Below, in pieces: positions 33,989-64,000 of a stretch of DNA of 64,000 nt (positions are counted from its first letter, which is position 1; each line of letters starts with the position of its first letter). Below the pieces are notes generated by a model. That model was not told where the DNA came from. It saw only the letters and a list, made by a program, of their open reading frames with translations, and ran no database searches. Where the stretch lies: the NCBI GenBank assembly GCA_024641245.1, contig JAHEDK010000002.1, positions 167,136 through 231,135 on the forward strand, in the 5' to 3' direction. The translations under genes and the position numbers were made by a program. The stretch comes from Actinomycetes bacterium (lineage in GTDB: Bacteria; Actinomycetota; Acidimicrobiia; Spongiisociales; JAHEDJ01).

Positions 33989-34110
33989 TCGGCGACGGCC
34001 CGGAGTCACAACTTCAAGGGCCGTTGGACCCTGTGCCGCGTTGACCTTTGGCAATACGGTGAAGGGCGGAGAGGAACAACTCAACTACATCGGGAGCCGC
34101 TGTGGCAGGA

Positions 34111-34584
34111 ATGAGCCGTCGGACTTTCTTGAGTCGCGCCACCGCGTCGATTGTCGGCGGGATCGGCGCGCTGATGGGCATCCCCACGGTTGCCTATCTC
34201 ATTTCTCCTGCCAAGGCTCGCGGTGGTCTTGGAGTCGAGGCGATCCCGCTCGGGCCTACCAACAAAGTGCCAATCGGGGAACCCACCCTCTTCAAAGCAA
34301 CCATCGAGCGCAAGACCGGATGGGTCACGCAGGCCGAAGAGCTCGCCTTCTACGTCTTCACAGAAGACGGGCGCAACTTCACGGCACTGTCCAACGTTTG
34401 CACGCACCTTGGCTGCCGGGTGCGGTGGGTCGGCAACGAGAAACAGTTCTTCTGCCCTTGCCACAATGCCGTCTTCACCGAAACCGGGAAAGTGGTTTCG
34501 GGCCCACCGCCCAGAGCCCTAGACCAGTACGAGCTGTCGGTTGAAGGTGACCAGTTGTTCGTCGTCGGGAAGGTCGAAGCATGA
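34111..34584 (+). CDS. Rieske [2Fe-2S] iron-sulfur subunit of a cytochrome b6-type complex (module 1), Tat-targeted
   Basis: MSRRTFLSRA twin-arginine signal. CTHLGC ... CPCHNAVF Rieske boxes. An alternative GTG lies 9 nt upstream (34102). Confidence 0.85.
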   Translation: MSRRTFLSRATASIVGGIGALMGIPTVAYLISPAKARGGLGVEAIPLGPTNKVPIGEPTLFKATIERKTGWVTQAEELAFYVFTEDGRNFTALSNVCTHLGCRVRWVGNEKQFFCPCHNAVFTETGKVVSGPPPRALDQYELSVEGDQLFVVGKVEA

Positions 34585-35270
34585 TCCAGAAGCTCAGTGC
34601 TTGGTTCGAAGAGCGGATGGGATGGAAGCCGATCTGGACGGCACTGGCGCTCCGCAACATCCCCAAGGTCAACTGGCTGTACACGCTGGGCAGCGCCACG
34701 CTCCTCGTCACAGTGAACCAGATTCTGACCGGCATCCTCCTCACCATCTACTACGTCCCCAGCCCTCAGGATGCCTACAACAGCGTTGCCTTCATAACGA
34801 ACGAGATCACTGCCGGCTGGCTCATCAGAGGGCTGCATCATTGGGGTGCCAGTGCGATGGTCGTCCTGGCCGGACTCCACATGCTGCGGGTGGTCTTCCA
34901 CGGCGCCTATAAGTTCCCCCGCGAAATCACCTGGTTCACCGGACTCGGCCTCCTGGCCGTGACGATGGCCTTCGGATTCACCGGGTACTTGCTGCCGTGG
35001 GATCAGAAGGCTTACTGGGCTACCACGGTGGGTACCCGAATGCTGGAGGTGACACCCGTCATCGGTGATTGGCTGCTCCGGATCGCCCGCGGTGGGGAAG
35101 AGCTGTCGGCCGTGACGCTCACCCGGTTCTACGGAACCCATGTATGGGTGCTCCCGTCGGTGCTCCTGCTACTCCTGGGTATCCACCTCTTTCTGGTCGT
35201 CCGCGTCGGCATCAGCGCACCTCCGACACCCAAGGAGACAGACGAGAAGCCCAAAGTGTGGTTCGAATAA
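34581..35270 (+). CDS. Cytochrome b6-like (N-terminal four-helix di-heme b subunit), module 1
   Basis: ATG overlaps the Rieske stop (ATGA). His pairs on helix B (HHWGASAMVVLAGLH) and helix D (THVWVLPSVLLLLLGIH). Confidence 0.85.
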   Translation: MIQKLSAWFEERMGWKPIWTALALRNIPKVNWLYTLGSATLLVTVNQILTGILLTIYYVPSPQDAYNSVAFITNEITAGWLIRGLHHWGASAMVVLAGLHMLRVVFHGAYKFPREITWFTGLGLLAVTMAFGFTGYLLPWDQKAYWATTVGTRMLEVTPVIGDWLLRIARGGEELSAVTLTRFYGTHVWVLPSVLLLLLGIHLFLVVRVGISAPPTPKETDEKPKVWFE

Positions 35271-39608: not shown

Positions 39609-40342
39609 CATTGGGCCAACGAATCCGCGAAAGCACGATAGGTCGTTCGATCTGGCGCGCCACCGACCGAACCACCGAACGCGACCAGGCGGCCGGTCAC
39701 TGGGCGAACTTCTTTCTGCACATCTACCCGGTGAAAGTGCGCAAGAAGGAGATCACGTTCCGCTATTCCTGGTATCTAGGTGTGGCGTCGGTGGTCCTGT
39801 TCGGATCGCTGATCGTTTCGGGCATCTACCTGATGTTCTTCTACGTCCCGTCGCCTGCCCAGGCCTACGGCGACATCCTCAACCTGCAAACGCGGGTCGC
39901 GTTCGGACAGTACATCCGCAACGTGCACCGCTGGTCGGCTCACCTCATGGTGCTGGTGGTGGCCGCGCACATGGCCCGGGTGTTTTATCGAGGGGCATAC
40001 AAGAAACCCCGCGAATTCAACTGGGGTATCGGCGTGATCCTCCTCGTGCTCACGCTGCTCCTTTCGTTCACCGGCTACCTGCTCCCCTGGGACCAGCTCG
40101 CCTACTGGGCGGTCACGGTCGGCACCGAGATGGCCGCCTTCGTCCCGCTGATCGGGGACACCGTCAAGGAAATGATGCTGGGTGGGCCGGTGGTTGCTTC
40201 GTCGACGCTGCTGCGGTTCTACGTTCTGCATGTCGCCGTTCTGCCCACGGCTGTCGTTCTCCTCATCACAATCCATATGTGGAGATGGCGCAAAGACAGC
40301 ATGCTCGACGCGGCGAAGGAGGGTGTTGATGTCGACGCCTAG
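39605..40342 (+). CDS. Cytochrome b6-like di-heme b subunit, module 2
   Basis: ATGA overlap with the GltD-like gene. Heme-ligand His pairs (HRWSAHLMVLVVAAH; LHVAVLPTAVVLLITIH). PWDQLAYW motif. Confidence 0.85.
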   Translation: MTLGQRIRESTIGRSIWRATDRTTERDQAAGHWANFFLHIYPVKVRKKEITFRYSWYLGVASVVLFGSLIVSGIYLMFFYVPSPAQAYGDILNLQTRVAFGQYIRNVHRWSAHLMVLVVAAHMARVFYRGAYKKPREFNWGIGVILLVLTLLLSFTGYLLPWDQLAYWAVTVGTEMAAFVPLIGDTVKEMMLGGPVVASSTLLRFYVLHVAVLPTAVVLLITIHMWRWRKDSMLDAAKEGVDVDA

Positions 40343-40865
40343 ACCAGATCAGGAAAATCCTGAGATCGTCGCCGGACAACGGGTGCTCGGGGTTGTTCCA
40401 GGCAAGCCGCCGGGCGGCGACCGCAAGGTTCTGAGCGAGCAGGAACCGGTCATGGTCTGGCCGCACCTACTCGTCCGCCACGGGGTGGCGGCGCTGGTGG
40501 TCATCGCCGTCGTTCTGGTGCTTGCCATATTCTTCGATGCCCCGCTGCGTGAGATCGCCAACCCCACGCTGACGCCCAACCCGGAAAAGGCCCCCTGGTA
40601 TTTCGCGGCGCTCCAGGAGCTGCTCTCGATGTTCCATCCGCTGGTGGCCGGTGTGCTGGTCCCGGGCGCCATCGTCCTCGGGCTCTTCGCGCTTCCGTAT
40701 GTGGATCGGACTTCGACGATCGAGCCGCGGTTCCGCAAGGTGGCGGTGGCGACGTTCACGATCTTCATGGTCGTGTGGATAGTCCTGACGGTTATCGGAT
40801 TCGCCTTCCGCGGCCCCAACTGGGGTTGGGTGTGGCCATGGCAAGAGTGGTACGGAGAGCTATGA
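40329..40865 (+). CDS. Cytochrome b subunit IV-like protein, module 2 (variant Qo motif APWY)
   Basis: Start overlaps the cyt b6 stop. Three TM helices. TPNPEKAPWYF replaces the PEWY box. Confidence 0.75.
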   Translation: MSTPRPDQENPEIVAGQRVLGVVPGKPPGGDRKVLSEQEPVMVWPHLLVRHGVAALVVIAVVLVLAIFFDAPLREIANPTLTPNPEKAPWYFAALQELLSMFHPLVAGVLVPGAIVLGLFALPYVDRTSTIEPRFRKVAVATFTIFMVVWIVLTVIGFAFRGPNWGWVWPWQEWYGEL

Positions 40866-41368
40866 GCAACGGAATCGGTCGGAGAGAATTCCTATCCCGG
40901 GCCTGGAAGTGGGGTGCCGCCCTCATCGGTGTCGCCGGCGGTTGGACCACGTGGGATATCCTGCAGCCCCGGGTCACCGGAGGCTTTGGTGGCGTCATCA
41001 AGACCAAGGCAGCCGACACAGTGCCGGACACCAACGTCGAATCCATCCGGGCCGCCAGAACCTACCTGACGAAGATCGACGGGCAGGTTGTAGCCCTCTC
41101 CGAGAAATGCCCGCACCTCGGTTGCCGGGTGCCGTGGTGTGATTCGTCCGGACAGTTCGAGTGCCCGTGCCACGGCTCGGTCTTCAACCGGGCGGGCGAG
41201 TACCGCGCAGGGCCCGCTCCCCGCGGAATGGACCGCTACGAGTTCGAGACGATCGACGGCATCGTCTACGTAGACACCGGAGCACCGGTATCCGGGCCGG
41301 CAATCGGTGTGGAGACCCTCAACGAACCCGTACGAGGGCCATCGTGTGAGGACAGCTCCCATGGGTGA
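40862..41368 (+). CDS. Rieske [2Fe-2S] protein, module 2, Tat-targeted
   Basis: ATGA overlap. RREFLSRA signal. CPHLGC ... CPCHGSVF boxes. Confidence 0.85.
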   Translation: MSNGIGRREFLSRAWKWGAALIGVAGGWTTWDILQPRVTGGFGGVIKTKAADTVPDTNVESIRAARTYLTKIDGQVVALSEKCPHLGCRVPWCDSSGQFECPCHGSVFNRAGEYRAGPAPRGMDRYEFETIDGIVYVDTGAPVSGPAIGVETLNEPVRGPSCEDSSHG

Positions 41369-41825
41369 GCGTCCGGTTGACCAGGAACTCGAACAGTCGA
41401 CCGTCAGATGGATGCAGGCCGGACTGGCCCTGATGGTCGTCCTGGTGCTGGCGTTTCCCGCCTACCGGCTCCTCGAACCTACCAACCGCGAAGAAGCACG
41501 CGACCTCTTGACGGAAGAACTCGCCGTCCAGGGCGAAGAGCTATTCGCGGGGCAGTGCGCCTCCTGTCACGGCGAAAAGGGGCTGAATGGACCGATCGGT
41601 CCGTCGCTCAACTCGAAGCAGTTCCTGGAGGCGGCCACCGACAGCCAGATCATCAGCCTCGTCTCGGTCGGCGTCCCGGGCTCTCAGATGGGCGCCTACT
41701 CGATCGACTTCGGAGGCCCACTGACACTCGAGCAAATCACCGGCATCGCAACCTATCTGCGCTCGCTGGAGAAAGACGCCCCGGACAATCCTGACTGGCG
41801 AGCAGTAGTAACGCCGGGGAGCTAG
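41361..41825 (+). CDS. Membrane-anchored monoheme c-type cytochrome (c6/c553-like)
   Basis: Start overlaps the Rieske stop. N-terminal TM helix. Single CASCHG heme site. Confidence 0.7.
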   Translation: MGERPVDQELEQSTVRWMQAGLALMVVLVLAFPAYRLLEPTNREEARDLLTEELAVQGEELFAGQCASCHGEKGLNGPIGPSLNSKQFLEAATDSQIISLVSVGVPGSQMGAYSIDFGGPLTLEQITGIATYLRSLEKDAPDNPDWRAVVTPGS

Positions 41826-42372: not shown

Positions 42373-42486
42373 TCAGCCCTCCACCCGGCGGCGGACGCTG
42401 CGCAGGCGCACAGTCAAGAACACCGCATATCCGATCATGAAGCCGTACACCACCGTGTAGGCAAAAACGACCCATCCGTTAGACAT
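42373..42486 (-). CDS. ccmD: Heme exporter protein CcmD (37 aa, single TM)
   Basis: Not in the ORF track. Translation is MSNGWVVFAYTVVYGFMIGYAVFLTVRLRSVRRRVEG. Its start overlaps the ccmC end, and its stop abuts the ccmE start. Confidence 0.55.
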   Translation of the reverse strand: MSNGWVVFAYTVVYGFMIGYAVFLTVRLRSVRRRVEG

Positions 42487-43204
42487 CTCGCACCTTCTCG
42501 AGGTTGGGAGCCGTGATGGCGGCACCGGCGGGCGTGGCATCAGCGGCGGCGGATTGTTCTTCGAGTTGTTCCTCGCCCCTGGCGATGGCCGTCTTGACGC
42601 TCATGAAGGCGAGATAGACCACGGTGAACGCTCCAACGTTGCTGAGCAACGCCAGCAGGATCTCTCCATCGATCGGAGAATCCGGTCGCACCACCGTGAT
42701 CCCCTGGTGCAACGTGCGAACGATGATCACCGAAACGTAGGACAGCGGCACGAGGAAGAAGGCCACGATGCCCAGCACCGCGGATCTCGTCGCCCGCATG
42801 GCCGGGTCGGGAATGCTGCGGCGCAAAGCCAGGTAACCGAGGTAGACGAAGAACATGAGGGCCGTCGTCATCATGCGGGCATCGCCCCAGTCCCAGAACG
42901 TCCCCCACACCGGGTAACCCCAGATCATGCCGGTCATGAGCGCCAGCGCGGTGAAGAACACGCCGACCGAGACGCTGGACTCGGCGATTCGATCGTAAAC
43001 GGGCTTGCGTCTCGCCAGCCACAGGATCGAGGCGGCGAACGTCACAAGAAACGAGAGGTAGGCAAGCCACGCCGAAGGTACGTGCACGTACATGATGCGG
43101 GTGTAGTCGCCCTGCAACTGATCGAGCGGCGCCTGGCCACCGAAGTAGAAGCCGACCAGCACCGCTGCCAGTGCGATCAACCCGAGTATTCGATGTCTAT
43201 TCAA
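42479..43204 (-). CDS. ccmC: Heme exporter protein CcmC
   Basis: WWD domain (GYPVWGTFWDWGD) and conserved His. Confidence 0.85.
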   Translation of the reverse strand: MNRHRILGLIALAAVLVGFYFGGQAPLDQLQGDYTRIMYVHVPSAWLAYLSFLVTFAASILWLARRKPVYDRIAESSVSVGVFFTALALMTGMIWGYPVWGTFWDWGDARMMTTALMFFVYLGYLALRRSIPDPAMRATRSAVLGIVAFFLVPLSYVSVIIVRTLHQGITVVRPDSPIDGEILLALLSNVGAFTVVYLAFMSVKTAIARGEEQLEEQSAAADATPAGAAITAPNLEKVRDV

Positions 43205-43881
43205 CGTGAGGCCTCCTCGAGGAATCGGGCGGTCAGCACACCTACCACTGCCAGCCCGAGTACCACGGCAAGTAGCAGAAGGATGGGAGTGAGGATACTT
43301 GACTTCTGAGCCAACGCTTCATACGTCTGTGATGCTCCGACGAGCAGCGGCAACGCCAGCGGTGCCACCAGCAGCGGTGCCAGCGTGTTACGAGAGCGCA
43401 GACCGGCCGTGATACCGGAGGCGAGCGTACCGATGAGCGCCAGGCCGACGGCCATCAGCAGAAGGACCAAAATCAGGATCGCCCACCCCTCTACCGGGTC
43501 CGGGTTGTAGAGGATGATCGTGGCGGGCGCAAGCACTCCTTCGAACACGAGCAACAGGAGGACGCTCGCCACAACCCTGCCCGCGAACTGCGCGGCCGGG
43601 TCCACGCCGAGCAACACCATCATCTCGCGATTGGCCGAACTCTCTGTGGCCGACTGGCGGAACGTGACCAGCATCCCGAACAGCAGGGTCACGACCCAGA
43701 ACATGCCCGGTCCGATCGAGGCGATGAGTGGACGGTCGGTCCCGATCGCCAGCGGGATGAGCAGCAGCGCAACCGCTCCAAACGGGATCGTGATGTTCAG
43801 GACCTCGCCGGTCCGTCCTTCGACCCGCAGATCCTTCAACCCGATCTCATATGCCTGGCCCCAGAACGACGGACCGCTCAT
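43201..43881 (-). CDS. ccmB: Heme exporter permease CcmB
   Basis: Six-TM ABC-2-type permease in a ccm context. Overlaps ccmC and ccmA by 4 nt each. Confidence 0.8.
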   Translation of the reverse strand: MSGPSFWGQAYEIGLKDLRVEGRTGEVLNITIPFGAVALLLIPLAIGTDRPLIASIGPGMFWVVTLLFGMLVTFRQSATESSANREMMVLLGVDPAAQFAGRVVASVLLLLVFEGVLAPATIILYNPDPVEGWAILILVLLLMAVGLALIGTLASGITAGLRSRNTLAPLLVAPLALPLLVGASQTYEALAQKSSILTPILLLLAVVLGLAVVGVLTARFLEEASR

Positions 43882-44534
43882 GATGAGCTCCCCGCGATCA
43901 CGATCCCACCCGTCAGCTCATAGGTCGATTGCACCAGCGGCAGCATGCGATCGAGTTCGTGGGACACGAAGACGGCGGCGCCACCACGGGAACGGACGTT
44001 CTCGACAACTGCGTCGACGAGTTGTCCGGCCTCTCGATCTAGTCCGGCGTGGGCCTCATCGAGCAGCAGTAGGTCGGGCCTGGTGAGAATCACCCTGGCG
44101 AACTCAACTCGCCGCTGCATACCATGCGACGACTGCTCCGCCCGCCGGTGCTTCGCCCCACCCAGCCCGACCACGTCGAGCATCTCATCTACCCGCTCGT
44201 CAGTGTGGCCCGACAACCGGGCGACGAAGGCGAGATTCTCACGCAGCGTCAACTGCGGGTAGAGCGCCGGTTGATGGCCGATCAGCGCGATCCGGCGCCG
44301 GATCGCAAACGCCGTCGCTTCGCCCATCTCGGTGCCGAACACCGCCACCGAGCCCTCCGTCGGTCGCAGCAACGTGGCCAGCACCCGGAGCAGCGTCGAC
44401 TTTCCCGAACCATTCGGCCCAACGATCCCGGCTGCCTCCCCGGACGGTACCGCCAGCTCCACGCCCTTCAATACCGGCACCCGGCCGTATCGAACGGCGA
44501 CGCCGTGCAGCTGCACTGTGGGAGGTGTGGACAT
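43878..44534 (-). CDS. ccmA: Heme exporter ATP-binding protein CcmA
   Basis: Walker A (GPNGSGKST), ABC signature (SHGMQRR), Walker B (LLLLDEA). Start at MSTPPTVQL. Confidence 0.8.
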   Translation of the reverse strand: MSTPPTVQLHGVAVRYGRVPVLKGVELAVPSGEAAGIVGPNGSGKSTLLRVLATLLRPTEGSVAVFGTEMGEATAFAIRRRIALIGHQPALYPQLTLRENLAFVARLSGHTDERVDEMLDVVGLGGAKHRRAEQSSHGMQRRVEFARVILTRPDLLLLDEAHAGLDREAGQLVDAVVENVRSRGGAAVFVSHELDRMLPLVQSTYELTGGIVIAGSSS

Positions 44535-44804
44535 GACAGACGAGTGTACGCACGCAGCTTCGGGCGCCGAAACGCGACCCCGGATAAACACCACCCGTTC
44601 TCTCCCTTTCGCCACCTTTTCAGGGTTTTATGGCGGGTTTCAACCCAGGCAGGGCCCAAGTGCCCCAGGGCGCGAGGACTTTGCGCTGTTGGTGTGTTTC
44701 CGATATACCCGTATCCTCTGCAATGAGAAACGGGGGACCGACCCTGAATCGCCGCCGGAACGGCTCATTCACACGGTGATCCCCATGGAGGAAGGCACAG
44801 CAAA

Positions 44805-46844
44805 ATGAACGCGACCCTCGGGTATCTCTCGATCCTGGCCGCAGTGGTGGGAGCGCTCGGTATCACCGTGCGGGGTTTCATCGCGATGCGTGATCCGGAG
44901 CGGGCGAACAAAGGGTATCTGGGGTTGCCCGTCATACTGTTCGTGTCCGGAGCCGTCGGCGCAATGTTCTTCCTGGAACTCGGGCTTCTCACCGACGACT
45001 TCTCGATCAAGTACATCGCCAACAACTCCTCGACCACCACCCCGTTTCTCTTCAAGGTCGCCTCTGGATGGGCATCGCTGGAGGGATCGATCGTTTTGTG
45101 GGGTCTGGTCCTGGCCGGCTTCACATTCGCCGTATACGCACGGTTCTTCAGAAGCGAAAGCGGCGACCGGCTCGCAGCAGGGGCTCTGGCGATCATGGGG
45201 CTCATCTCTCTTTACTTCTTCGGGCTAATGGCCACAATCTCCGACCCATTCGCTCGCTGCGTGCAAACGTTCAGCGACGGTGTCGGTTGTGTGACCGGCG
45301 AGAACGCGATCCTCGCCAACGTGATCTCCTCCCCGATCGAAGGGCGCGGCGCCAACGCACTGCTCCAGAACCATTGGCTCATGGCCCTGCATCCACCAAC
45401 GCTCTACGTCGGCTATGTCGGGCTCAGCGTCCCCTTTGCGTTTGCCATCTCGGCGCTCCTCCTCAAAACCACCGGGGCGGCCTGGCTGACCCGGACCCGC
45501 AACTGGACGGTGTTCGCCTGGATGTTCCTCACTGCCGGCATTGTTCTCGGTGGGCTCTGGTCGTATGAGGTGCTCGGCTGGGGCGGCTACTGGGCATGGG
45601 ACCCGGTTGAGAACGCCTCCTTCATGCCGTGGCTGGTCGCGACTGCCTTCTTGCACTCGTCTGTCGTGCAGGCGAGGCGCGGGATGCTGCAGTCGTGGAA
45701 CTTCGTCCTCGTCATCACGACCTTCGCGCTCACGATTCTCGGCACCTTCTTGACCCGCTCCGGCGTAATCGTTTCGGTTCACAGCTTCTCGCAGTCCGCC
45801 ATCGGGCCTGCCCTGTTGATCTTCCTGGTGGTCGTGCTGCTGGGATCGCTCGGGCTCTTCGCGTCAAGGGCTCACACCATCGCCTCTTCTCCCCGGCTCG
45901 ATTCACTCAGCAGCCGGGAAGGGGTGTTCTTGTTCAACAACCTTCTGCTCACCGTGTTCGCGTTCATGGTGCTGACAGGGACGCTCTACCCGCTCTTCGT
46001 TGAGGCGTTCTCCGACTCGACGGTGGGCGTCGGTCGTCCGTTCTTCGATCGCATGGCGATCCCGTTGTCCTTCCTGTTGCTGCTGGCGATGGGCATCGGA
46101 CCGGTCTCGCCCTACCGGGCGGCGAGCGCCCGCGTCGTGTGGGAGCGGATTCGCTGGCCCGTCCGGGTTGCCCTCGGCGCCGCCGCGCTGGCCGTCGTGT
46201 TCGGCTATCGGAACTCGTTCCTGCTGCTCGGTGTTCTGGCCGCCGTGTTCGTCATGGGCGTGATCATCCGCAACCTCTACGACGCCGCCCGGACCAGGGC
46301 AGACAAACTCGGTATCGGACGGAGACAGGCCGCCGCCCGGATCATGCGCGGCGACCCGCACTATTGGGGTGGCCAGATCTCCCACCTGGGCGTTGCGATA
46401 CTGGCACTGGGCATCGCCTTCTCAGCCAACCTGTCGGAGACCGCCACGGTGACCATCGACGCCGGAGATACGGTCAACTTCGCCGGCTTCGAGGTGACCT
46501 ACGAACAGGAGTTCAGCCGCCAGGAACCGGGCCGGTTCGTCACCGGAGCAGACATCACGGTGACCCGGGACGGGTCGGTCGTCGGTACGTACCAGCCACG
46601 GCTGAATCAGTACGGCAACACGCGGGAATCGATCGCCACCCCAGAGGTCGACACCATGTTCTCAGGCGACCTGTACCTCTCGCTCCGCAGCATCGATCCT
46701 TCATCCGTGACCCTCGAGGTCTATTGGTTCCCGTTCATCTGGCTCATCTGGGTTGGAGGCTTCCTGGCGGCCGCCGCCGGGGTCTGGGGATTCGCGGTCA
46801 AGAAGCCCGAACGTTCGGTTGCACGGGACGACACGCGTGTCTGA
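44805..46844 (+). CDS. ccmF: Cytochrome c-type biogenesis heme lyase CcmF
   Basis: About 15 TM helices, WWD domain (WGGYWAWDPVEN), conserved periplasmic His. Confidence 0.9.
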   Translation: MNATLGYLSILAAVVGALGITVRGFIAMRDPERANKGYLGLPVILFVSGAVGAMFFLELGLLTDDFSIKYIANNSSTTTPFLFKVASGWASLEGSIVLWGLVLAGFTFAVYARFFRSESGDRLAAGALAIMGLISLYFFGLMATISDPFARCVQTFSDGVGCVTGENAILANVISSPIEGRGANALLQNHWLMALHPPTLYVGYVGLSVPFAFAISALLLKTTGAAWLTRTRNWTVFAWMFLTAGIVLGGLWSYEVLGWGGYWAWDPVENASFMPWLVATAFLHSSVVQARRGMLQSWNFVLVITTFALTILGTFLTRSGVIVSVHSFSQSAIGPALLIFLVVVLLGSLGLFASRAHTIASSPRLDSLSSREGVFLFNNLLLTVFAFMVLTGTLYPLFVEAFSDSTVGVGRPFFDRMAIPLSFLLLLAMGIGPVSPYRAASARVVWERIRWPVRVALGAAALAVVFGYRNSFLLLGVLAAVFVMGVIIRNLYDAARTRADKLGIGRRQAAARIMRGDPHYWGGQISHLGVAILALGIAFSANLSETATVTIDAGDTVNFAGFEVTYEQEFSRQEPGRFVTGADITVTRDGSVVGTYQPRLNQYGNTRESIATPEVDTMFSGDLYLSLRSIDPSSVTLEVYWFPFIWLIWVGGFLAAAAGVWGFAVKKPERSVARDDTRV

Positions 46845-47250
46845 TTCGATTCGCAAGATCGCGGCGGCGGTGGTGACTATCGGCCTGGCGGTTGTCGTCG
46901 TAATCGGCCTCATCCAGGGCGACCGAACCGATGAAGATCGCGCCCGGTCCATCGGCTCCAGAGTGAAGTGTCCCGTTTGCCAGGGCGTAGCCATTGCCGA
47001 TTCTCCTTCGGAAACTGCCAGAGCGATGATGGACGTCGTCGAAGAGCGAATCGCAGACGGGTGGTCGGACAGACAGATCATCGACTACTTCGCGGAGCGC
47101 TACACCGACAGCATCGTCATCGACCCGCCCTTCAGCGGGAATACGCTGCTCGTCTGGCTGCTGCCGATCCTGGCAGTAGTCGCAGGCTTCTTCATGATCT
47201 TCTCCCGGCGCAAGACGCCGGTGCCAAAACCCGATGAGGTGAAACAGTGA
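46837..47250 (+). CDS. ccmH: Cytochrome c-type biogenesis protein CcmH
   Basis: GTG overlaps the ccmF stop (GTGTCTGA). CPVCQG motif, then a TM anchor. Confidence 0.75.
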   Translation: MSDSIRKIAAAVVTIGLAVVVVIGLIQGDRTDEDRARSIGSRVKCPVCQGVAIADSPSETARAMMDVVEERIADGWSDRQIIDYFAERYTDSIVIDPPFSGNTLLVWLLPILAVVAGFFMIFSRRKTPVPKPDEVKQ

Positions 47251-48080
47251 GCAACTTCAACCAGGAGTCATACGATCGGGCGGTCGCCCGCAAGGAACTG
47301 GCCTTGACCGATCTCGAAGAGCTGGCCCAGCAGGTGGACGACGGTGAGATCGACGCGCCCACCGCGGCAGGACTCCGGAGCGGCTACGAGGCTGAACTCG
47401 GCGCGGCCGAAGCCGAACTGGCCAGACTCGGTCCACCGCCCACTCCCAAGAAGTCGCCCGGTCAAGCGTCGACCAAACGTGCGCCGAGCGAGAACGGACG
47501 GCCGGCCCGGAAGTCGAGCGACTTGAATACTCGTCTGCTGGTCGGCGCCGGCATTCTCATCGTCGCCCTCGTCGTGATTCTCATCTCGGTCCAGAATTCG
47601 GCGCAGCCGGATCCGGCCGCGATGGGCACCCAGGTGACGACGGCAAGCGGCGAGGACCCCTGCGCGGAGCTGGCCGACGCGTTGACCAGTCACTCCGACA
47701 ACGGCTTTCGTCTCGCACTGGCCGACTGCTACGCAGACGTCGGAAACGCCATGTCGGCGATCGAGCACTACCGGGCCGTCGCCGATGCCGAAGGTGCCGC
47801 CGACGGCGAGGTCGCACGGGCAAACGTGGGACTCGGCTTCCTCAACCTTCAAATCGGTGAGCTCGCCAAGGCCGCCGACTACATGCGCGTGGCGCTCGAG
47901 CGCGACGCCGCCAACGTCGAAGCTCAATACTTCCTGGGCATGATGCTCGTCTACGACCTCGGCGATCCGGCCGCAGGAGCCCCATATCTCGAGTCGGTAC
48001 TCGCAACTCCCGACCTGCCGGAGACGGTGATCCTCGAAATCCAGGCAGCGCTCGATGTCGCGGCGGGCGAGGGCTCATGA
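47247..48080 (+). CDS. CcmI/CycH-like TPR-containing cytochrome c biogenesis accessory protein
   Basis: ATGA-type overlap with ccmH. N-terminal coiled region, a TM helix, C-terminal TPR-like helices. Confidence 0.45.
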   Translation: MSNFNQESYDRAVARKELALTDLEELAQQVDDGEIDAPTAAGLRSGYEAELGAAEAELARLGPPPTPKKSPGQASTKRAPSENGRPARKSSDLNTRLLVGAGILIVALVVILISVQNSAQPDPAAMGTQVTTASGEDPCAELADALTSHSDNGFRLALADCYADVGNAMSAIEHYRAVADAEGAADGEVARANVGLGFLNLQIGELAKAADYMRVALERDAANVEAQYFLGMMLVYDLGDPAAGAPYLESVLATPDLPETVILEIQAALDVAAGEGS

Positions 48081-48685
48081 CCAACACGGACCTCGCCGTC
48101 GAGCCGACCCCGGAAGCACCGCAACGCAACCTCAAACTGTGGATAACGACCGGCCTGGCGGCGGTGGCCTTCATCGCGCTCGCCCTCGTGTTCAACAGCC
48201 GGTTTGGCGTTGACCCCCGGGTCGTCGAATCCCCGCTCATCGGGCAACCCGCCCCGAACCTCGAACTCGAGGTTCTCGAGCAGGACGCCATCTCTGGCCC
48301 CATGGCAATGTCGGAATTTCGCGGCAGCGTGGTCGTGGTCAACTTCTTCGCCTCTTGGTGCATCCCCTCCTGTCGCGATGAGCACCCCCATCTCACCGCG
48401 GCCGCCGCCGACTACGCCGACCGCGGCGTCCGGTTCGTTGGAATAGCCACCAGCGACACACCCGAAGACACACGCGGGTTCCTCGACGCGCTCGGGTGGG
48501 GAACCAACTACACCTACCTCAACGATCCCGATGCCAGGGCAGGAGTCGAGTTCGGCACATTCGGAGTTCCCGAAACGTTCGTGATCGACCGGGAGGGGCT
48601 CGTCACGCACAAGTTCACGGGGCCGGTCACATACGATGAACTGGTCGTCGAGTTGGAGAAGGCGTTGACCGAGACGGGTTCATGA
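48077..48685 (+). CDS. ccmG: Thiol:disulfide interchange protein CcmG/DsbE (TlpA-like thioredoxin), unusual CxxxC (WCIPSC) active site
   Basis: Membrane anchor plus thioredoxin fold. The active-site DNA reads TGG TGC ATC CCC TCC TGT. Confidence 0.75.
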   Translation: MTNTDLAVEPTPEAPQRNLKLWITTGLAAVAFIALALVFNSRFGVDPRVVESPLIGQPAPNLELEVLEQDAISGPMAMSEFRGSVVVVNFFASWCIPSCRDEHPHLTAAAADYADRGVRFVGIATSDTPEDTRGFLDALGWGTNYTYLNDPDARAGVEFGTFGVPETFVIDREGLVTHKFTGPVTYDELVVELEKALTETGS

Positions 48686-48794: not shown

Positions 48795-49484
48795 ATGCAG
48801 AGAACAAACGAGCTGACACAAGGCGCGCGGCGGCTGGCCTGGTTGACACTTTTGACGCTCGCATGGTTGTTGTGGATGAGTCAGGCGGCCGCCCACGCCC
48901 AGGAACTCCCGGTACGGGATGATCCGTTCTGGAAGACGGACACCTGCCTCGGCTGCCATCAGCAGTCGGACCTGTCGGTGACGCTGCCATCCAACGAGAC
49001 GCTGCGCCTCGCCGTGTATAGAGGCGCGTACGAAGATTCGGTGCATGGTCGAACAGGAGTGGCCTGCCGCAATTGCCATCTCGACATCACGGGGTATCCG
49101 CACCCTGATCTCACCGCCGGAAGCCTGGCCGAGTTCTCAGAACAGCAGGCCAGTTCTTGCGAGATGTGTCACCGTGACCACTACGGCAAAGTGGCGGATG
49201 AGCTGCATGAGGAGTCCGGTGGGTTGCTGTGCTTCGAGTGTCATGATCCGCACACCACCGGCACCGGCTCCGTCTCGGCAGAAGTGCAAGCCTCCTGCAA
49301 CGCCTGCCACTCCGAGGGTATCGCCATTCCTGTCGAGGGGATTCATGCCGCGCCCGAGGTACCTGTCGCGGAGACCACAAGCGGCGTTACAATCCTGCTC
49401 ATCCTCGGCGGAATCTTCGTCGGTTTCGTCGTCCTCGTCTGGCTGGCGACGGTGGCTTGGCGTGTCGTGCGCGACCGAAGCTGA
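48795..49484 (+). CDS. Pentaheme c-type cytochrome with signal peptide and C-terminal TM anchor
   Basis: CLGCH, CRNCH, CEMCH, CFECH, CNACH. C-terminal hydrophobic helix (ILLILGGIFVGFVVLVWLATVAW). Confidence 0.8.
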   Translation: MQRTNELTQGARRLAWLTLLTLAWLLWMSQAAAHAQELPVRDDPFWKTDTCLGCHQQSDLSVTLPSNETLRLAVYRGAYEDSVHGRTGVACRNCHLDITGYPHPDLTAGSLAEFSEQQASSCEMCHRDHYGKVADELHEESGGLLCFECHDPHTTGTGSVSAEVQASCNACHSEGIAIPVEGIHAAPEVPVAETTSGVTILLILGGIFVGFVVLVWLATVAWRVVRDRS

Positions 49485-51796: not shown

Positions 51797-52720
51797 TCAA
51801 GCAGCCTGGTGGATCGCGGCCAGGACTTCCGCAACAACGGAATCCGGCCGGCCAATCAGGTCCCACCAGGTGTATCGAAGCGTTCTCCAGCCGAGTAGCT
51901 CTGTCTGGTTCTGGATCACGCGGTCTCTGCGAAACGTGGGGCGATCCATGTGAAACGCTTCGGAGTCGAGTTCGATCCGCAGGCGGTGCTCGATGAAGGC
52001 GAAGTCGGCCCGGCATACGAACGTCCCGTCAGGGTTTCTGATCTCCACCTGTGGCGTCGGTTGCGGCGTACGGAGCCCCCACGACCGGCGAAACAGATCT
52101 TCCAGTTCGCTCTCGGTGACGCCATCCCAGTGGAGCCGCTGCTCGACGAACGGCCGTATGACCCCGACTCCCCTGCGGCCGCGCCTGGCGACCCGGCCGA
52201 CCAGCGCGGCAACACCTTCGAGCGTAAAGCTCCGAGTTCTCAGACCTCTATCGAGAGCCGACTCGACCAGCCACGGCGCGCTGGCGCCCAGATCGACGAC
52301 CGTTCGGACCGGAGTGGTCACCGGGATACCCGAGACCTCCGCCGAGTCCTCGGGAGCGAGATCGGTCGACTCGTGAACGACGAACTCCTGATGCGCCCGA
52401 TTCCAGCGGGGCATCACTACCTCGATGCGCGGAGGCTTGCGATCAACCAGGCCGTGCAGGAATGCAGCGGTCTGGTGGGAGGCCAGCGCCAGATCGCCTG
52501 CGGTCGTGGTCGCGATGAGCACGGCCTGATGCCAGTCGCGCGGCACGGCGGGGAAAACGTACGTGCGGTAGGCCACCCGCTCGAGCACTCCGCGGGACGT
52601 CAAACCTTTCAACTGATCTGAGCTGAGCCCTGCCTCAATGACAGCAGCACGATCGACTACGCCGTGTCGCAAGGCGGCCCTCTGAGTGAGAATCTGCAAC
52701 GGTGTCATGCCCAACACCAT
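51797..52720 (-). CDS. DUF559 (Vsr-like endonuclease fold) protein with N-terminal AbiEi-like HTH region
   Basis: C-terminal DUF559 pattern (FVCRADFAFIEHRLRIELDSEAFH). The track ORF extends to 52912 through the REP elements. Start placed at MVLGMTPLQIL. Confidence 0.55.
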   Translation of the reverse strand: MVLGMTPLQILTQRAALRHGVVDRAAVIEAGLSSDQLKGLTSRGVLERVAYRTYVFPAVPRDWHQAVLIATTTAGDLALASHQTAAFLHGLVDRKPPRIEVVMPRWNRAHQEFVVHESTDLAPEDSAEVSGIPVTTPVRTVVDLGASAPWLVESALDRGLRTRSFTLEGVAALVGRVARRGRRGVGVIRPFVEQRLHWDGVTESELEDLFRRSWGLRTPQPTPQVEIRNPDGTFVCRADFAFIEHRLRIELDSEAFHMDRPTFRRDRVIQNQTELLGWRTLRYTWWDLIGRPDSVVAEVLAAIHQAA

Positions 52721-52753
52721 CAAGGTTGGGTGTGACAAATCCCGAACCCAGTG

Positions 52754-52872
52754 AACTTGCGTCAGAAACGGGCGCCGGCCGCCCCAAACTGACGCAAGAA
52801 AGGGATAGGGGCGCCACCTTCTCGTTCTTGCGTCAGTGTTCCGAGCAACGGGCCCAGAAGTGACGCAAGAAT
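52754..52872. repeat. Two tandem REP-like palindromic units (arms at 52754-65/52789-801 and 52823-36/52859-72)
   Basis: Four copies of the TTGCGTCAG/CTGACGCAA core in alternating orientation, upstream of the DUF559 gene. Confidence 0.5.
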
Positions 52873-52939
52873 GAGGAGAGACAGAGAAGTGGGGAGCCTT
52901 TCGGCTCCCCACTTCGGGTGTTCGTTAAGCGACTCTTGT

Positions 52940-55752: not shown

Positions 55753-55936
55753 TGACAGACCCGACCTCCATCACCCGGCGAATGCCATTGGGCCCTACAG
55801 GACACAATTCGACCGCGGGTACCGTCGCGTTAGGACCCGCGGGTGCTGTCAGGAACCGCGGATTGGGCCACATGGGAGAGAGGCGAGGGCCCGCAATGGT
55901 TTGTGAATGCCGTGAGTGGTCGAGAGGGGGCCCACG

Positions 55937-56362
55937 GTGTTGATCACCCGCGAGGTCGACTACGCCGTGCGCTGTGTTCTCGACGTAGCCCGCACCGGGC
56001 ACACCTCCACCGGAGCAGTCGCCGAACGGGCCGGGATACCCCCATCGATCCTCGGGCGCATCGTGGCGGCTGTATCGAAAGCCGGCATACTCACTACCAG
56101 ACGAGGAGTCAAAGGCGGCATCGATCTTGCGCGCGATCCAAGCGAGATCAGCCTGCTTGACGTCATAGAGGCGGTGCAAGGTCCGCTCTTCGTCAACATC
56201 TGCTGCGAGCATCCCGAAACCTGTGACGCCGCTACCAACTGTCCGATCCGACCCGTCTGCGAGGACGCCTTCGACGAGCTGAGACGGGTCTTCTCGGTGA
56301 CCTACGACACATTGCTCAACGGCGGCCACGTTCCTCTCCGCCCGTTCGTCCAAGAGGAGTAG
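55937..56362 (+). CDS. Rrf2 family transcriptional regulator (IscR/NsrR-like, three conserved Cys)
   Basis: N-terminal wHTH (LITREVDYAVRCVLDVA). Cys triad (NICCEHPETCDAATNCPIRPVC), the spacing of Fe-S-binding Rrf2 proteins. Confidence 0.75.
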   Translation: MLITREVDYAVRCVLDVARTGHTSTGAVAERAGIPPSILGRIVAAVSKAGILTTRRGVKGGIDLARDPSEISLLDVIEAVQGPLFVNICCEHPETCDAATNCPIRPVCEDAFDELRRVFSVTYDTLLNGGHVPLRPFVQEE

Positions 56363-56423: not shown

Positions 56424-57296
56424 ATGAAGCGACGAACCCAGCTTTACGCGCTCGGCGGACTCCTCATTGTTGTTTCGTTTGCCGCCTGGCGGTTGACGGA
56501 CGATCCGGCAATCGAACCACCGCTGATCCCGATCGCAGCAACCGCCGTGGTCGCAGACTCCGACTTCGACGCGTGCCTCGAGTGCCACGACGACATCGAG
56601 CAATCCCTCCAAGCCGGACTGGTGCAACTCATCGGATTTCGACACGAAGAGCACTTCTCGAATTCCGGCGACGTCGGTTGCGGCAACTGCCACGGTCTCG
56701 ACACGCACGATCGCACCCCGCCGCAGGCACCGACCATGGAGGATTGTTTTTCGTGCCACCTCGACGCCGGGCCGGCTGCCGAGTTGCCGTGTCTCCGCTG
56801 TCACGACAACGCCACTGTGCCACCGCCGCAGAGCCACTTCACCTCAGAGTGGCGCGACGTTCACGGCTCCGGCGCCCTGCTCAGCCAGTCGCTGTGCGAG
56901 ACCTGCCACTCGCGACAAGATTTCTGCACGGCGTGCCACGGTGTCGATATTCCGCATCCAGACGGATGGACCGGCTATCCACACGCACGTGCGACGTTCG
57001 ATTCGGGCATCGAGTCGTGTGCACGCTGCCACGAGCGCGGTCCGGAACTGACGGCTCGCGACGAATGTGACGGCTGCCACCATCCGCAGAACCCCGCAGA
57101 ACCCATCTGGAAGGATGCTCACCCAGAGGTGGTCCGAAGCCAGGGTGGCTCGACGTGCTTCGAGTGCCACGACCCCAACACATGCGCCACATGTCACACA
57201 TCGGGAGTTGAAGACTTCTCCGCCGATCTCAACCGGCTCGAAGTGCCCGGCCCACCAAAGGTCACGGAGTCACCGCCCGAGGACGGTGACTCGTGA
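56424..57296 (+). CDS. Membrane-anchored decaheme c-type cytochrome
   Basis: N-terminal TM helix. 10 CxxCH (CLECH, CGNCH, CFSCH, CLRCH, CETCH, CTACH, CARCH, CDGCH, CFECH, CATCH). Confidence 0.8.
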   Translation: MKRRTQLYALGGLLIVVSFAAWRLTDDPAIEPPLIPIAATAVVADSDFDACLECHDDIEQSLQAGLVQLIGFRHEEHFSNSGDVGCGNCHGLDTHDRTPPQAPTMEDCFSCHLDAGPAAELPCLRCHDNATVPPPQSHFTSEWRDVHGSGALLSQSLCETCHSRQDFCTACHGVDIPHPDGWTGYPHARATFDSGIESCARCHERGPELTARDECDGCHHPQNPAEPIWKDAHPEVVRSQGGSTCFECHDPNTCATCHTSGVEDFSADLNRLEVPGPPKVTESPPEDGDS

Positions 57297-58309
57297 GTCT
57301 GTCCCCGGTACCCATCGGACCGGCGGGACGCTCGCCCGGAATCCCATTCCCGGCACCACCGACCGCCCTCCGGCGATTCTCAACGCAACCACCGCCACCT
57401 CCCGACGGCGAGCCATCTCGCCGTCCCGAGCTTCGTGCCCTCGGTGACGGGGCGGGCTCGGGAAGGGACAACAGGGCATCGGAGCCACGCGGGTCTCGCT
57501 GGCTTCGGCGCCTCGTCATCATCGTCGCGACCGTCGGCGCCCTCGTATTCGTCGCCTCCTGGAGCTACGCCTCGTCATCGCGCAACATGTGCGGAAGCTG
57601 TCATAGCGTCTCGGCGGCTGCAGAATCCGCCGGTGATTCGGTGCACGCAGATATCCCGTGCCTCGCCTGCCACAGGCAAGCGGGCATCGTCGGAGCGTTC
57701 ACCTACCTCCCTGTGCTGCTGCGCGAGTCTGTTCACGAGCTGACTGGACTCTCTATCGCCGAAGGAGTGCTCGACCCCGTCGGATGTGGTTCTTGTCACT
57801 CTTTCCTATCCGACGCGGCGGCGCGAGGCGATCATCCGGACGAGACAGCAGAATGCTCGTCCTGCCACGGCAACGTAGCCCACCCGGGAGCCGGGACGGC
57901 TCCGGAAGGGGACGGCCATCCGTCCGGGTTCTTCGCTTTCCACGGCCGGGATTCCGTCGCTTCGCCCGGATCATGCGCAGAATGCCATAAGAACGACTTC
58001 TGCTCGGCCTGCCACTTCCGCACGGAGTATCCGCATCCGGAAACCTGGACGTCGCTCCATGGTCCGGCGTCAATCGAAGGCGGCCCCGCTGCTTGTGTGA
58101 TGTGCCACGAGCCCACGTACTGTTCGAGCTGTCACGGCGCCGACATCCCCCATCCGGACAACTGGTTCGAGATCCATCATCGGGCAACCGACCCGGCAGT
58201 CGGGTCGGCCTGCCTATCGTGCCATGCAGCCTCCGAGTGCTCCTCCTGCCACGTCCGGCACTCAGTTCACAACGAGCAAGGGCTCTACCAGTGGGACCTC
58301 AAGCCATGA
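57293..58309 (+). CDS. NapC/NirT-like membrane-anchored decaheme c-type cytochrome (candidate quinol dehydrogenase)
   Basis: GTG overlaps the upstream stop. TM helix, then SSRNMCGSCH...CLACH, typical of NapC/NirT N-termini. 10 CxxCH in total. Confidence 0.75.
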   Translation: MSLSPVPIGPAGRSPGIPFPAPPTALRRFSTQPPPPPDGEPSRRPELRALGDGAGSGRDNRASEPRGSRWLRRLVIIVATVGALVFVASWSYASSSRNMCGSCHSVSAAAESAGDSVHADIPCLACHRQAGIVGAFTYLPVLLRESVHELTGLSIAEGVLDPVGCGSCHSFLSDAAARGDHPDETAECSSCHGNVAHPGAGTAPEGDGHPSGFFAFHGRDSVASPGSCAECHKNDFCSACHFRTEYPHPETWTSLHGPASIEGGPAACVMCHEPTYCSSCHGADIPHPDNWFEIHHRATDPAVGSACLSCHAASECSSCHVRHSVHNEQGLYQWDLKP

Positions 58310-61799: not shown

Positions 61800-62909
61800 A
61801 TGCGCACCAAGCTGCAAGGGTTCGCTCTGTGGGGGATGCTGTTCTTTGCCGTCGTCGGACTCACGGCCCTGTCGGCCGACCCGGCCTCAGCGCAGGATTC
61901 CGCCGACTCGGAAGTCAACAACTACTGCCTGGGATGCCACGAATCCGGGAACATCATTCTCACGTTCCCGTCGGGGGAGATGCTTCCCGCCGTGGTGCCG
62001 CGTACCGTTTTCGACGCCTCTATCCACGGTCAGGTCGGCCTCACCTGCATCGCCTGTCATACCGATATCGGGCAGTACCCACACGACCCCATGTCGGCCG
62101 TCACCCGGCGAGACCTGGCGATCGAGTTGTACACCACGTGCTTCAACTGCCACGAGAGCGAATACACCGACACGCTCGACAACATGCACACCGAAGCTCT
62201 CGCCGGCGGCAACCGGGAAGCCGCCGTCTGCACCGACTGCCACGGCGCTCACAACGTCACCCACCCCAGCGTCGACACAACGGCCATCCCGCGCACCTGC
62301 CGGAACTGCCACTCCGAGATCTACGACCTGTACGCCGGCAGCATCCACGGTGCCGCCCTACTCGAACACGACAATCAGGACGTTCCAAGCTGCACGAGTT
62401 GTCACGGCGTCCACAGTGTTGAAGGACCCTCGCACTCGCAATTCCACCTGTTCTCACCGAAAATCTGCGAGGACTGCCACGCCGATGAAGCTCTCATGGG
62501 CAAGTACGGGATCAGCACGGCGGTCTTCGACACCTACGTAGCCGATTTCCACGGCACGACGGTCATGCTCTTCGAGGAACTGGCGCCCGACCAGAAGACC
62601 AACTCGCCGGTCTGTATCGACTGCCACGGCGTGCACAACATCCTGGCCGCCAACGAGGTCGACTCGACCGTCTACAAGGAGAACCTGCTCCTCACCTGTC
62701 AGCGGTGCCACCCAGACGCCACCGCCAACTTCCCCGACTCGTGGATGAAGCACTACCAACCGACCTCCGACCAGGCGGTCCTTGTCTGGCTGGTCAATTG
62801 GTTCTACCGACTCGTCATCCCCGGCGTCGTGGGGGGCATGCTCGTCTGGGTGACGATCGACGGCATTCGCCACTTGCAGCATCGACGGAAGGCGGCCGAG
62901 AGTGTCTGA
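61800..62909 (+). CDS. Nonaheme c-type cytochrome with signal peptide and C-terminal TM anchor (CbcL periplasmic-domain-like)
   Basis: 9 CxxCH (CLGCH, CIACH, CFNCH, CTDCH, CRNCH, CTSCH, CEDCH, CIDCH, CQRCH). C-terminal helix WLVNWFYRLVIPGVVGGMLVWV. Confidence 0.8.
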   Translation: MRTKLQGFALWGMLFFAVVGLTALSADPASAQDSADSEVNNYCLGCHESGNIILTFPSGEMLPAVVPRTVFDASIHGQVGLTCIACHTDIGQYPHDPMSAVTRRDLAIELYTTCFNCHESEYTDTLDNMHTEALAGGNREAAVCTDCHGAHNVTHPSVDTTAIPRTCRNCHSEIYDLYAGSIHGAALLEHDNQDVPSCTSCHGVHSVEGPSHSQFHLFSPKICEDCHADEALMGKYGISTAVFDTYVADFHGTTVMLFEELAPDQKTNSPVCIDCHGVHNILAANEVDSTVYKENLLLTCQRCHPDATANFPDSWMKHYQPTSDQAVLVWLVNWFYRLVIPGVVGGMLVWVTIDGIRHLQHRRKAAESV

Positions 62910-64000
62910 CGTCCTTGAGCGCGCAGCAGTCGACGTCGAACTGGACGATCGGATACTGCGTTTTGGAAAGGCGGATCGCATCGAGCATGCGGTCCAGGTA
63001 ATCAGCTTCGCCGGCCTCGGCCTCACTGGGCTGATCCAGAAGTTCTTCGAGTCGGCGATTTCTCAGTGGTGGATTGAGTTCCTTGGTGGGTTGCCACAGG
63101 TGCGCGTCATTCATCGCTGGCTGGCGACCATCCTCATGCTCGCCGTCATCTGGCACTTCGGTAAAGCCGGATATCGCACGTACGTCGAACGGCGACCGCG
63201 AGCCATGGTCCCGAGCAAGCGCGACTGGATTGCCATCAAGGAATCGATCGCGGTGCTGGCGGGACGGCGTCACGAACCTGTGAAACAAGGTCGATTCACG
63301 TTCGCGGAGAAGGTCGAGTACTGGTCGTTCGTCTGGGGCACCGTCTTGATGATCGCCACCGGCTATATGCTGTGGAACCCGATTTCCACCGCCAAGTTCC
63401 TCCCCGGTGATTTCATCCCGGCCGCCAAAGCGGCACACGGTGGAGAAGCGATCCTGGCTGTGCTGGCCATCCTCGTCTGGCACATCTACCACGTGCACAT
63501 CAAGCATTTCAACAAGAGCATCTTCACCGGCTACATCAGCCGGGCAGAGATGATCGAAGAACATGGCCTCGAACTCGAGGCGATGGAGGCGGGCAAGACC
63601 GGTCCGCAGGCGACACAAGCCGAGATTGTGGAGCGGCGGCGCAAGTTCCTTCCCGCCTTCGGTGTTGTGGCGGTCCTCATGATGGCCGGCATCTACTGGT
63701 TCGTGAGCTTCGAGGATACGTCGATCGCCACCATCGAGCCCATCGAAAACGTGGTGGCATACAAGCCACTGCCTCCTGAACAGCAGAGCGGCCCGGCGCT
63801 TTCTGGTGACAATCCGCTCCCGACCATCGTCATCCCCGACACCACCCTCCCCACCGAGACGACGGTGCCGCAGGGTGAAGTCACATGGGCCACGGTTGGG
63901 CCCGTTCTGGCCGATAGCTGCGGTACGTGCCATTCGGCCTCGAACTCCATGGGCGGGCTCGACCTTTCGTCGTACGAGGGGGCGCTGGGTTCCGAGGGAG
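62902..64000 (+). CDS. Di-heme b-type cytochrome (FdnI/HydC cytochrome b561 family) with C-terminal c-type heme domain; 3' end outside window
   Basis: Not in the ORF track because it has no stop in the window. GTG overlaps the upstream stop (GTGTCTGA). Four TM helices with His ligands (HRWLATILMLAVIWH; HGGEAILAVLAILVWHIYHVH). The C-terminal soluble region has CGTCH. Confidence 0.6.
   Translation, partial: MSDVLERAAVDVELDDRILRFGKADRIEHAVQVISFAGLGLTGLIQKFFESAISQWWIEFLGGLPQVRVIHRWLATILMLAVIWHFGKAGYRTYVERRPRAMVPSKRDWIAIKESIAVLAGRRHEPVKQGRFTFAEKVEYWSFVWGTVLMIATGYMLWNPISTAKFLPGDFIPAAKAAHGGEAILAVLAILVWHIYHVHIKHFNKSIFTGYISRAEMIEEHGLELEAMEAGKTGPQATQAEIVERRRKFLPAFGVVAVLMMAGIYWFVSFEDTSIATIEPIENVVAYKPLPPEQQSGPALSGDNPLPTIVIPDTTLPTETTVPQGEVTWATVGPVLADSCGTCHSASNSMGGLDLSSYEGALGSEG

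Follow-up and report, generated by a model that had tools for sequence, protein, structure and literature searches.

The stretch of DNA analysed here (the window) comprises 64,000 nucleotides (nt) of contig JAHEDK010000002.1 from an Acidimicrobiia bacterium (assembly GCA_024641245.1, positions 167,136 to 231,135 of the forward strand). At its 3′ end lie two overlapping genes, one for a nonahaem c-type cytochrome and one for a b-type cytochrome with a c-type tail, which the initial annotation had read as a split version of CbcL, a single-chain quinol oxidoreductase of Geobacter. CbcL connects the quinone pool with multihaem cytochromes outside the cell membrane, and its menaquinol oxidase activity is required for extracellular acceptors of low potential. 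We found, in agreement with that proposal, that both modules are homologous to a CbcL orthologue and collinear with it; the arrangement as two adjacent genes is common and not a one-off. All features of the two genes given below are on the plus strand.

The first gene (61800..62909), identified from the list of open reading frames (ORFs), nine CxxCH motifs and a match to CbcL in hhalign, encodes a protein of 369 amino acids. Its predicted signal peptide (residues 1–31, ending ...PASA/QD; 61800..61892) contains a hydrophobic run at residues 5–27 and a helix at residues 3–24 of the predicted model; the cleavage site was placed by the AxA motif. The nine haem-binding motifs (residues 43–304; 61926..62711), recognised by motif count and conservation, are at residues 43, 83, 114, 144, 167, 198, 223, 272 and 300. 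Nine further histidines (H76, 95, 130, 151, 183, 205, 251, 279 and 318) are invariant and are likely the distal haem ligands. Indeed, the retention of nine haem motifs and nine other invariant histidines across 70 homologues is far above chance. The protein ends in a hydrophobic helix (about residues 326–356; 62775..62867), the C-terminal membrane anchor that had been predicted from the letters, which aligns with the first transmembrane helix of CbcL. In the predicted model it forms a helix at residues 327–368, with a predicted local distance difference test score (pLDDT) of up to 97, and it is followed by a basic cytoplasmic tail. In Pfam, multihaem c families match the protein. A comparison of the model with the PDB returned hydroxylamine oxidoreductase and MtrA; these matches were weak and non-specific, and we did not accept a catalytic function on their account.

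The second gene starts with a GTG that overlaps the TGA stop of the first in GTGTCTGA (62902..62909), exactly where the overlap had been noted before. The 8-nt overlap suggests translational coupling of the two genes. The GTG start at 62902 is matched by independent gene calls on identical Logan contigs; an overlap of 8 or 4 nt is likewise found in the relatives L007, L008 and L090, and in the gene calls inspected in relatives stop and start overlap by 4–8 nt. As noted from the letters, the b gene runs off the window: its frame (62902..64000; the 5′ 1,099 of 1,503 nt) is open for 366 codons up to the last position. We obtained the 3′ end by an exact-match look-up of the nonahaem protein, which led to four Logan contigs; one of them, L002, carries the complete b gene (L002:2906-4408) and is identical to the window over the shared part. 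The full-length b protein has 500 amino acids, is 100% identical to the database protein P0001, and was modelled by AlphaFold with a mean pLDDT of 82. It consists of four FdnI-like helices, cytoplasmic helices, a fifth helix, a Pro/Thr linker and two PSCyt1 domains. Scans for promoters and terminators around the pair detected nothing, which is uninformative because the host is a high-GC actinobacterium.

The FdnI/HydC-type four-helix dihaem b domain occupies residues 20–204 (62959..63513). The hidden Markov model PF01292 (Ni_hydr_CYTB) matches the b frame of the window with 47.5 bits, above its cut-off of 30.1; phmmer matched residues 18–223 with FdnI of E. coli (1KQF chain C) at E 1.2e-10, and Foldseek superposed the model of the domain on the same chain with a template modelling (TM) score of 0.79 (E 1.4e-6). 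Four histidines, H29, H71, H179 and H194, are 95–100% conserved in an alignment of 115 family members. They align, the last one with an offset of one residue, with H18, H57, H155 and H169 of FdnI, which we take to be its haem ligands. Of the other conserved histidines, H85 and H221 are invariant and H199 nearly so, and helix 4 has an H-x14-H-x4-H spacing identical to that in CbcL. The geometry of b-haem ligands on which the initial annotation had staked its reading is, thus, conserved. Among the most conserved segments is also the loop aligned to the quinone-site residues N110 to Q113 of FdnI, with G130, T133, E136, K137, E139 and Y140; we regard this G130–Y140 loop as a putative quinone site. 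The distribution of charges in the loops of the b protein is compatible with an N-in topology with the c domains outside, and fits a placement of these domains on the outer face of the membrane.

Downstream of the b domain, the fifth transmembrane helix (residues 248–271; 63643..63714) was recognised from hydropathy and from a helix at residues 239–269 of the model. The BLASTP alignment of the b protein to CbcL runs through it; by this alignment it is the counterpart of CbcL helix 6, and is predicted to bring the chain back to the outer face. A Pro/Thr-rich linker follows (residues 272–324; 63715..63873), with ten prolines and eight threonines in 53 residues and predicted to be disordered (pLDDT <50). 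The first PSCyt1-type monohaem c domain starts at 63886 and reaches the window end (63886..64000), with its CGTCH at residues 340–344 (63919..63933). The tail was anticipated by the initial annotation, which rightly gave the linker and the CGTCH site and, however, envisaged one c-haem domain where there are two: on the full-length protein PF07635 (PSCyt1) scores 53.1 bits against a cut-off of 22, over two stretches, each with one CxxCH (CGTCH at residue 340, CGACH at residue 432) and one invariant histidine in a GHPG motif (H387 and H479). The rest of the first domain and the second domain lie past the window end and were read from L002. All 120 closest homologues have one to five CxxCH motifs 3′ of the fifth helix, and in relatives PF00034 and PF13442 domains are added.

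CbcL is described as a protein with nine CxxCH motifs in its N-terminal part, six transmembrane helices and a dihaem b domain of the HydC/FdnI type (PMC6295460, PMC9129911, bioRxiv 10.1101/2021.04.15.440034), all nine haems being bis-His (PMC9129911); its function and topology are treated in these papers and in bioRxiv 10.1101/2022.08.31.506072. The CbcL/MtrH/MtoC family to which it belongs spans 3 to 23 haems and 4 to 6 helices (PMC6295460). Partial, machine-read fragments of CbcL of Geobacter sulfurreducens (GSU0274, also named Cbc1; WP_010940947.1) used as query retrieved Desulfuromonadales fragments with 57–94% identity. Among them was P0253 of Desulfuromonas thiophila, which matched 33% of the query with 86% identity and was the source of the proxy orthologue that we compared with the window pair. 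In D. thiophila, cbcL is broken by a one-base frameshift (L005:4955-4975, the same as L006:9955-9975) into gene calls of 434 and 179 amino acids; the break may have arisen in the assembly, or the gene may be a pseudogene. Similarly truncated calls account for several of the database ‘proteins’ found with the CbcL fragments.

The nonahaem protein aligned with the c domain of the D. thiophila orthologue in BLASTP with 107 bits (residues 43–364 against 32–319), anchor helix included, and in hhalign with a probability of 99.9% (E 5e-35). All nine CxxCH motifs are in register, so that the order of haem motifs, which the initial annotation had proposed to compare with GSU0274, agrees with that of the orthologue. 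Apart from one pentahaem paralogue, the other multihaem cytochromes of the window gave only 22–34 bits with the nonahaem protein. The b protein aligned with the b domain of CbcL with 67–73 bits (residues 20–268 against 342–603) and a hhalign probability of 99.3% (E 1.5e-20). The six transmembrane helices of the pair, one anchor and five in the b protein, align one-to-one with those of CbcL; the boundary between the genes maps to the cytoplasmic loop between CbcL helices 1 and 2, whose length is kept (14 + 19 residues in the window, 33 in CbcL). The product of the first gene is, by these alignments, the counterpart of the CbcL periplasmic domain together with CbcL helix 1. The two systems also share the order of nine bis-His c haems, the H-x14-H-x4-H helix, the predicted topology and the lack of an iron–sulphur (FeS), flavin or molybdopterin partner. 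They differ in that the c and b modules, joined in CbcL on a single polypeptide, are two polypeptides with overlapping stop and start in the window, and in that the window form continues for about 230 residues past the last helix (linker and PSCyt1 domains), whereas the D. thiophila orthologue stops right after it. The hosts differ as well: a presumably monoderm Acidimicrobiia bacterium here, diderm Desulfuromonadales for CbcL.

Fused single-chain relatives bridge, at the level of sequence, the split and the single-chain forms. P0268 (641 amino acids) has 49% identity with the nonahaem protein and 51% with the b domain, P0274 is a further fused close relative, and P0379 is 30% identical to CbcL over 574 amino acids. 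Among the best 150 nonahaem representatives (50% clustering), at least 17, with 7–22 CxxCH, are probably also fused single chains, because they contain the b-domain motif. The collinear homology of both modules to CbcL and these fused relatives place the pair in the CbcL/MtrH/MtoC family and not with CbcBA.

The CbcBA complex (GSU0593-0594), the other split bc cytochrome of Geobacter, deserved attention as an alternative, since it has the same gene order: a multihaem cytochrome c with a C-terminal anchor helix, and a separate dihaem b protein of the FdnI/HydC class. We used BccR, CbcA and CbcB from the same D. thiophila locus as a control set. The b protein gave 16 bits (E 5.7) with CbcB, that is, no detectable sequence relationship, as against its score with the CbcL b domain, and the nonahaem protein matched CbcA with 42 bits over part of the protein, as against 107 with CbcL. 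CbcA has seven haems and another haem-ligand scheme. Its anchor helix has been proposed to donate a histidine ligand, whereas the homologue alignment contains no conserved histidine in the anchor helix of the nonahaem protein. CbcBA is regulated through sigma-54, and the ORFs that we scanned over 10 kb upstream of the pair include no BccR-type sigma-54 activator. We consider a CbcBA-type complex very improbable; the CbcB and CbcA scores, set against those with CbcL, rule out membership at the sequence level.

To the search with the nonahaem protein, 3,332 cluster representatives responded at E ≤1e-3 and 375 at E ≤1e-30. Close homologues are 50–60% identical and 344–419 amino acids long, 119 out of 120 have the nine motifs, and the named ones bear source labels of Acidimicrobiia, Anaerolineales or Chloroflexota metagenome-assembled genomes (MAGs). 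A scan of one genome per species revealed at least 571 loci with relatives of the b protein. In the best 80 of these, all from MAGs, a nonahaem homologue stands directly upstream on the same strand at 77, and 71 of the 77 have exactly nine motifs; the remaining three loci are cut by the contig start, so that all 77 informative loci are paired. The pair is, therefore, not rare: hundreds of genomes of uncultured Chloroflexota and Actinomycetota contain it. In a 2018 survey of CbcL/MtrH/MtoC homologues, none was listed for Actinobacteria or Chloroflexi (PMC6295460), and our literature search (CbcL or multihaem terms with Chloroflexi, Actinobacteria or Acidimicrobiia) found no description of the split family. 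In five Chloroflexota loci (L030, L048, L061, L065 and L083) we noted a second FdnI-like b stretch about 2 kb upstream of the b–c gene, ahead of the nonahaem gene, which may be the gene of an additional b-type subunit.

The strict pairing also bears on whether the b protein could simply be the gamma subunit of a formate dehydrogenase-N or an [NiFe] hydrogenase, with the nonahaem gene merely adjacent. Many homologues are indeed named ‘formate dehydrogenase gamma subunit’ by the Joint Genome Institute, and NCBIfam FdnI models hit the b protein with E values of 1e-12 to 1e-15. However, the scores of these equivalog models are far under the curated cut-offs (56 against 339, 51 against 116 and 46 against 341), no FdnG/H or hydrogenase genes are nearby, the partner upstream is a nonahaem gene in every informative locus, and fused relatives exist. 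The low scores, the missing partners and the pairing effectively rule out a gamma subunit. Homology, architecture, the logic of topology, the conservation of haem ligands and of the quinone loop, and the gene pairing are established by the analysis.

We propose, with a probability of roughly 70%, that the pair is a two-subunit menaquinol:multihaem-cytochrome oxidoreductase of the CbcL/MtrH/MtoC family, which passes electrons from quinol to an extracytoplasmic multihaem network; beyond the comparison of sequences and models, we infer that quinol is oxidised, which way the electrons run, what the tail does and what finally accepts them. The first subunit, anchored by its one C-terminal helix, would carry its nine bis-His c haems as a chain along the outside of the cytoplasmic membrane. 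The second would stack two b haems across the membrane in its FdnI-type four-helix bundle and would continue, through the fifth helix and a flexible linker of about 50 residues, into the two PSCyt1 domains on the outer face. The analogy with FdnI and CbcL suggests that menaquinol is oxidised next to the b haem on the cytoplasmic side, with release of its protons to the cytoplasm. Electrons would then travel via the two b haems to the nine c haems, to the two tethered monohaem domains or to both, and further to multihaem cytochromes encoded nearby and an external acceptor, or they might flow in reverse. The tethered domains would probably serve as a built-in hand-off carrier in a cell without periplasmic soluble cytochromes.

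Reverse flow would make the same complex a quinone reductase, which supplies the quinone pool with electrons from extracellular donors such as Fe(II), a cathode or a syntrophic partner; MtoC has been proposed to act in this way. In FdnI electrons go inward to the cytoplasm-side quinone site and build proton-motive force; the CbcL/MtrH/MtoC family, moreover, has members in Fe(III) reducers as well as in Fe(II) oxidisers, and no feature of their sequences tells the two directions apart (PMC6295460). MtoC and MtrH (Fe(II) oxidisers, Rhodoferax) share the superfamily architecture with the window pair; they differ, however, in being fused and in adjoining mtrAB/mtoAB porin–cytochrome genes, whereas the window pair is split and tailed and has no porin genes here. 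Cyc2- or MtoA-like genes were likewise absent among the ORFs scanned, the locus bears no sign of Fe(II) oxidation, and bis-His multihaem chains are usually of low potential. We regard the reverse direction as unlikely.

Several points weigh against the proposed oxidoreductase. The split clade is known from sequence and predicted models. The model of the nonahaem protein is moderately confident (pLDDT 75). The CbcL comparator is a frameshift-corrected orthologue (614 amino acids) that stands in for GSU0274, and the identity of the window proteins to CbcL is just 26–30%. PF01292 matches the window b protein and not CbcL; since the window b domain is nearer to canonical FdnI than CbcL is, details of CbcL such as potential-gating may not transfer. 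Finally, monohaem class-I-like c domains typically donate electrons to oxidases and soluble reductases, and a tail of this type fits a task outside extracellular electron transfer.

The same type of tail was found a second time in the window. Residues 332–499 of the b–c protein are 30% identical (61 bits, E 3e-13) to residues 681–864 of an 866-amino-acid ORF (35069..37669) that belongs to a Rieske/cytochrome b complex; two different quinol-side modules of the window, thus, end in tethered output domains of one type. They may share a module for output or docking, and the tail might also feed oxidases or soluble reductases. The pair might then resemble Alternative Complex III or bc1 in function, as a quinol:cytochrome c oxidoreductase of general use whose tail supplies terminal oxidases or soluble nitrogen-oxide reductases. 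Its PSCyt1 domains, and the PF00034 and PF13442 domains of relatives, are of the usual oxidase-donor types, the di-PSCyt1 tail is shared with the Rieske-associated protein, and the family is very widespread in Anaerolineae, for many of which oxygen respiration has been reported (PMC11748557). The surroundings of the pair, however, speak against such a role: the window already has two Rieske/cytochrome b complexes, no oxidase or reductase gene is adjacent in the window or in the four relatives inspected, and the neighbours are large multihaem and NapC/NirT-type cytochromes. A wire of nine haems would, besides, be unnecessary for reaching an oxidase. We judge a complex-III-like function improbable, and retain the quinol:multihaem-cytochrome oxidoreductase as the best description of the pair.

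The layout of this oxidoreductase has a parallel in E. coli formate dehydrogenase-N (1KQF), where an outer-face redox subunit is held by the single C-terminal helix of FdnH and a separate four-helix dihaem b subunit, FdnI, shares the fold of the window b domain and would likewise have its quinone site on the cytoplasmic side. The peripheral part is a Mo/FeS enzyme there and a nonahaem cytochrome here; the fifth helix and the c-type tail are extra in the window pair, and electron flow is presumably outward. As the split layout mirrors FdnH/FdnI, the split form may be the older state, from which single-chain CbcL would be derived by fusion. A wider scheme, which we put forward tentatively and hold to be doubtful as a whole, would make the split pair the main, hitherto unrecognised route between the quinone pool and extracytoplasmic multihaem cytochromes in the presumably monoderm Anaerolineae and Acidimicrobiia, with the tail as a swinging carrier that replaces the soluble cytochromes of Geobacter and with the split arrangement as ancestral.

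MAGs of Anaerolineae and Actinomycetota have repeatedly been reported to be rich in multihaem cytochromes, for which a cytoplasmic-membrane enzyme linking them to the quinone pool had not been reported. The split module, 40–60% identical across most of the related genomes examined, is a concrete candidate for this link, and can serve as a marker of electron transfer that is extracellular, or periplasmic in an unusual way, in these abundant lineages. The family is widespread and conserved, and represents a variant of the CbcL kind and not a new principle. For the biochemistry of CbcL it offers a naturally separated pair of subunits, and its tethered cytochrome domains provide a testable idea of how electrons may be handed off without a pool of periplasmic carriers.

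The pair closes a 30-kb respiratory region of the window, which contains the two Rieske/cytochrome b complexes, a Ccm system, seven further multihaem cytochromes and an Rrf2 regulator, as well as SurA-like, TPR and NHL-propeller proteins. The first complex consists of a Rieske protein (34102..34584), a b6-like cytochrome b (34581..35270) and the 866-amino-acid ORF, which combines a petD-like Cytochrom_B_C domain, a c7-like multihaem stretch, about six Cytochrome_CBB3/PF00034 domains and PSCyt1 domains, with 8 CxxCH in total. It is followed by a GltD-like NAD(P)H oxidoreductase with FeS domains (37812..39608). The layout of 34102–39608 recalls what we take to be the arrangement of anammox Rieske/b complexes with NAD(P) oxidoreductase subunits. 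The second complex (39536–41825) comprises a cytochrome b (39536..40342), a subunit IV-like protein (40182..40865), a Rieske protein (40775..41368) and a monohaem cytochrome c (41307..41825). The Ccm genes follow, with ccmA, ccmB and possibly ccmC on the minus strand within 42479..44615, and with ccmF (44805..46844), ccmH (46753..47250) and the gene of a CcmG-like redoxin (48077..48685) on the plus strand; a TPR protein is encoded among the plus-strand Ccm genes (42479–48685). In relatives the pair comes directly after ccm genes and a large multihaem cytochrome, and L007 shares the Ccm genes and their order, has all of them on a single strand, and carries the pair only one multihaem gene further on.

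Next to the Ccm genes lies the gene of the pentahaem cytochrome (229 amino acids; 48795..49484), a paralogue of the part of the nonahaem protein that holds the first five haems (33% identity over residues 40–185, 88 bits). Between a 723-amino-acid multihaem cytochrome and the nonahaem gene the window has about 10 kb (51797–61655) that are absent from L007. This segment includes an AbiEi-like antitoxin-domain protein (51797..52912, minus strand), the Rrf2 regulator (55916..56362), a NapC/NrfH-like membrane-anchored multihaem cytochrome (57293..58309) and the SurA-like, TPR and NHL-propeller proteins; its multihaem cytochromes have 6, 11, 10, 10 and 8 CxxCH. In L090, whose b protein is 93% identical to that of the window, an ISL3 transposase gene stands just before the nonahaem gene. 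Directly downstream of the b–c gene, L090 and L007 carry a convergent gene on the minus strand for a NapC/NirT-family multihaem cytochrome of 519–531 amino acids (L090:12073-13668, L007:11679-13238). It could be the one-helix ImcH-like protein, a kind reported for Actinobacteria and Chloroflexi (PMC6295460). In L090 this gene is followed by a hemA–hemN operon for haem biosynthesis.

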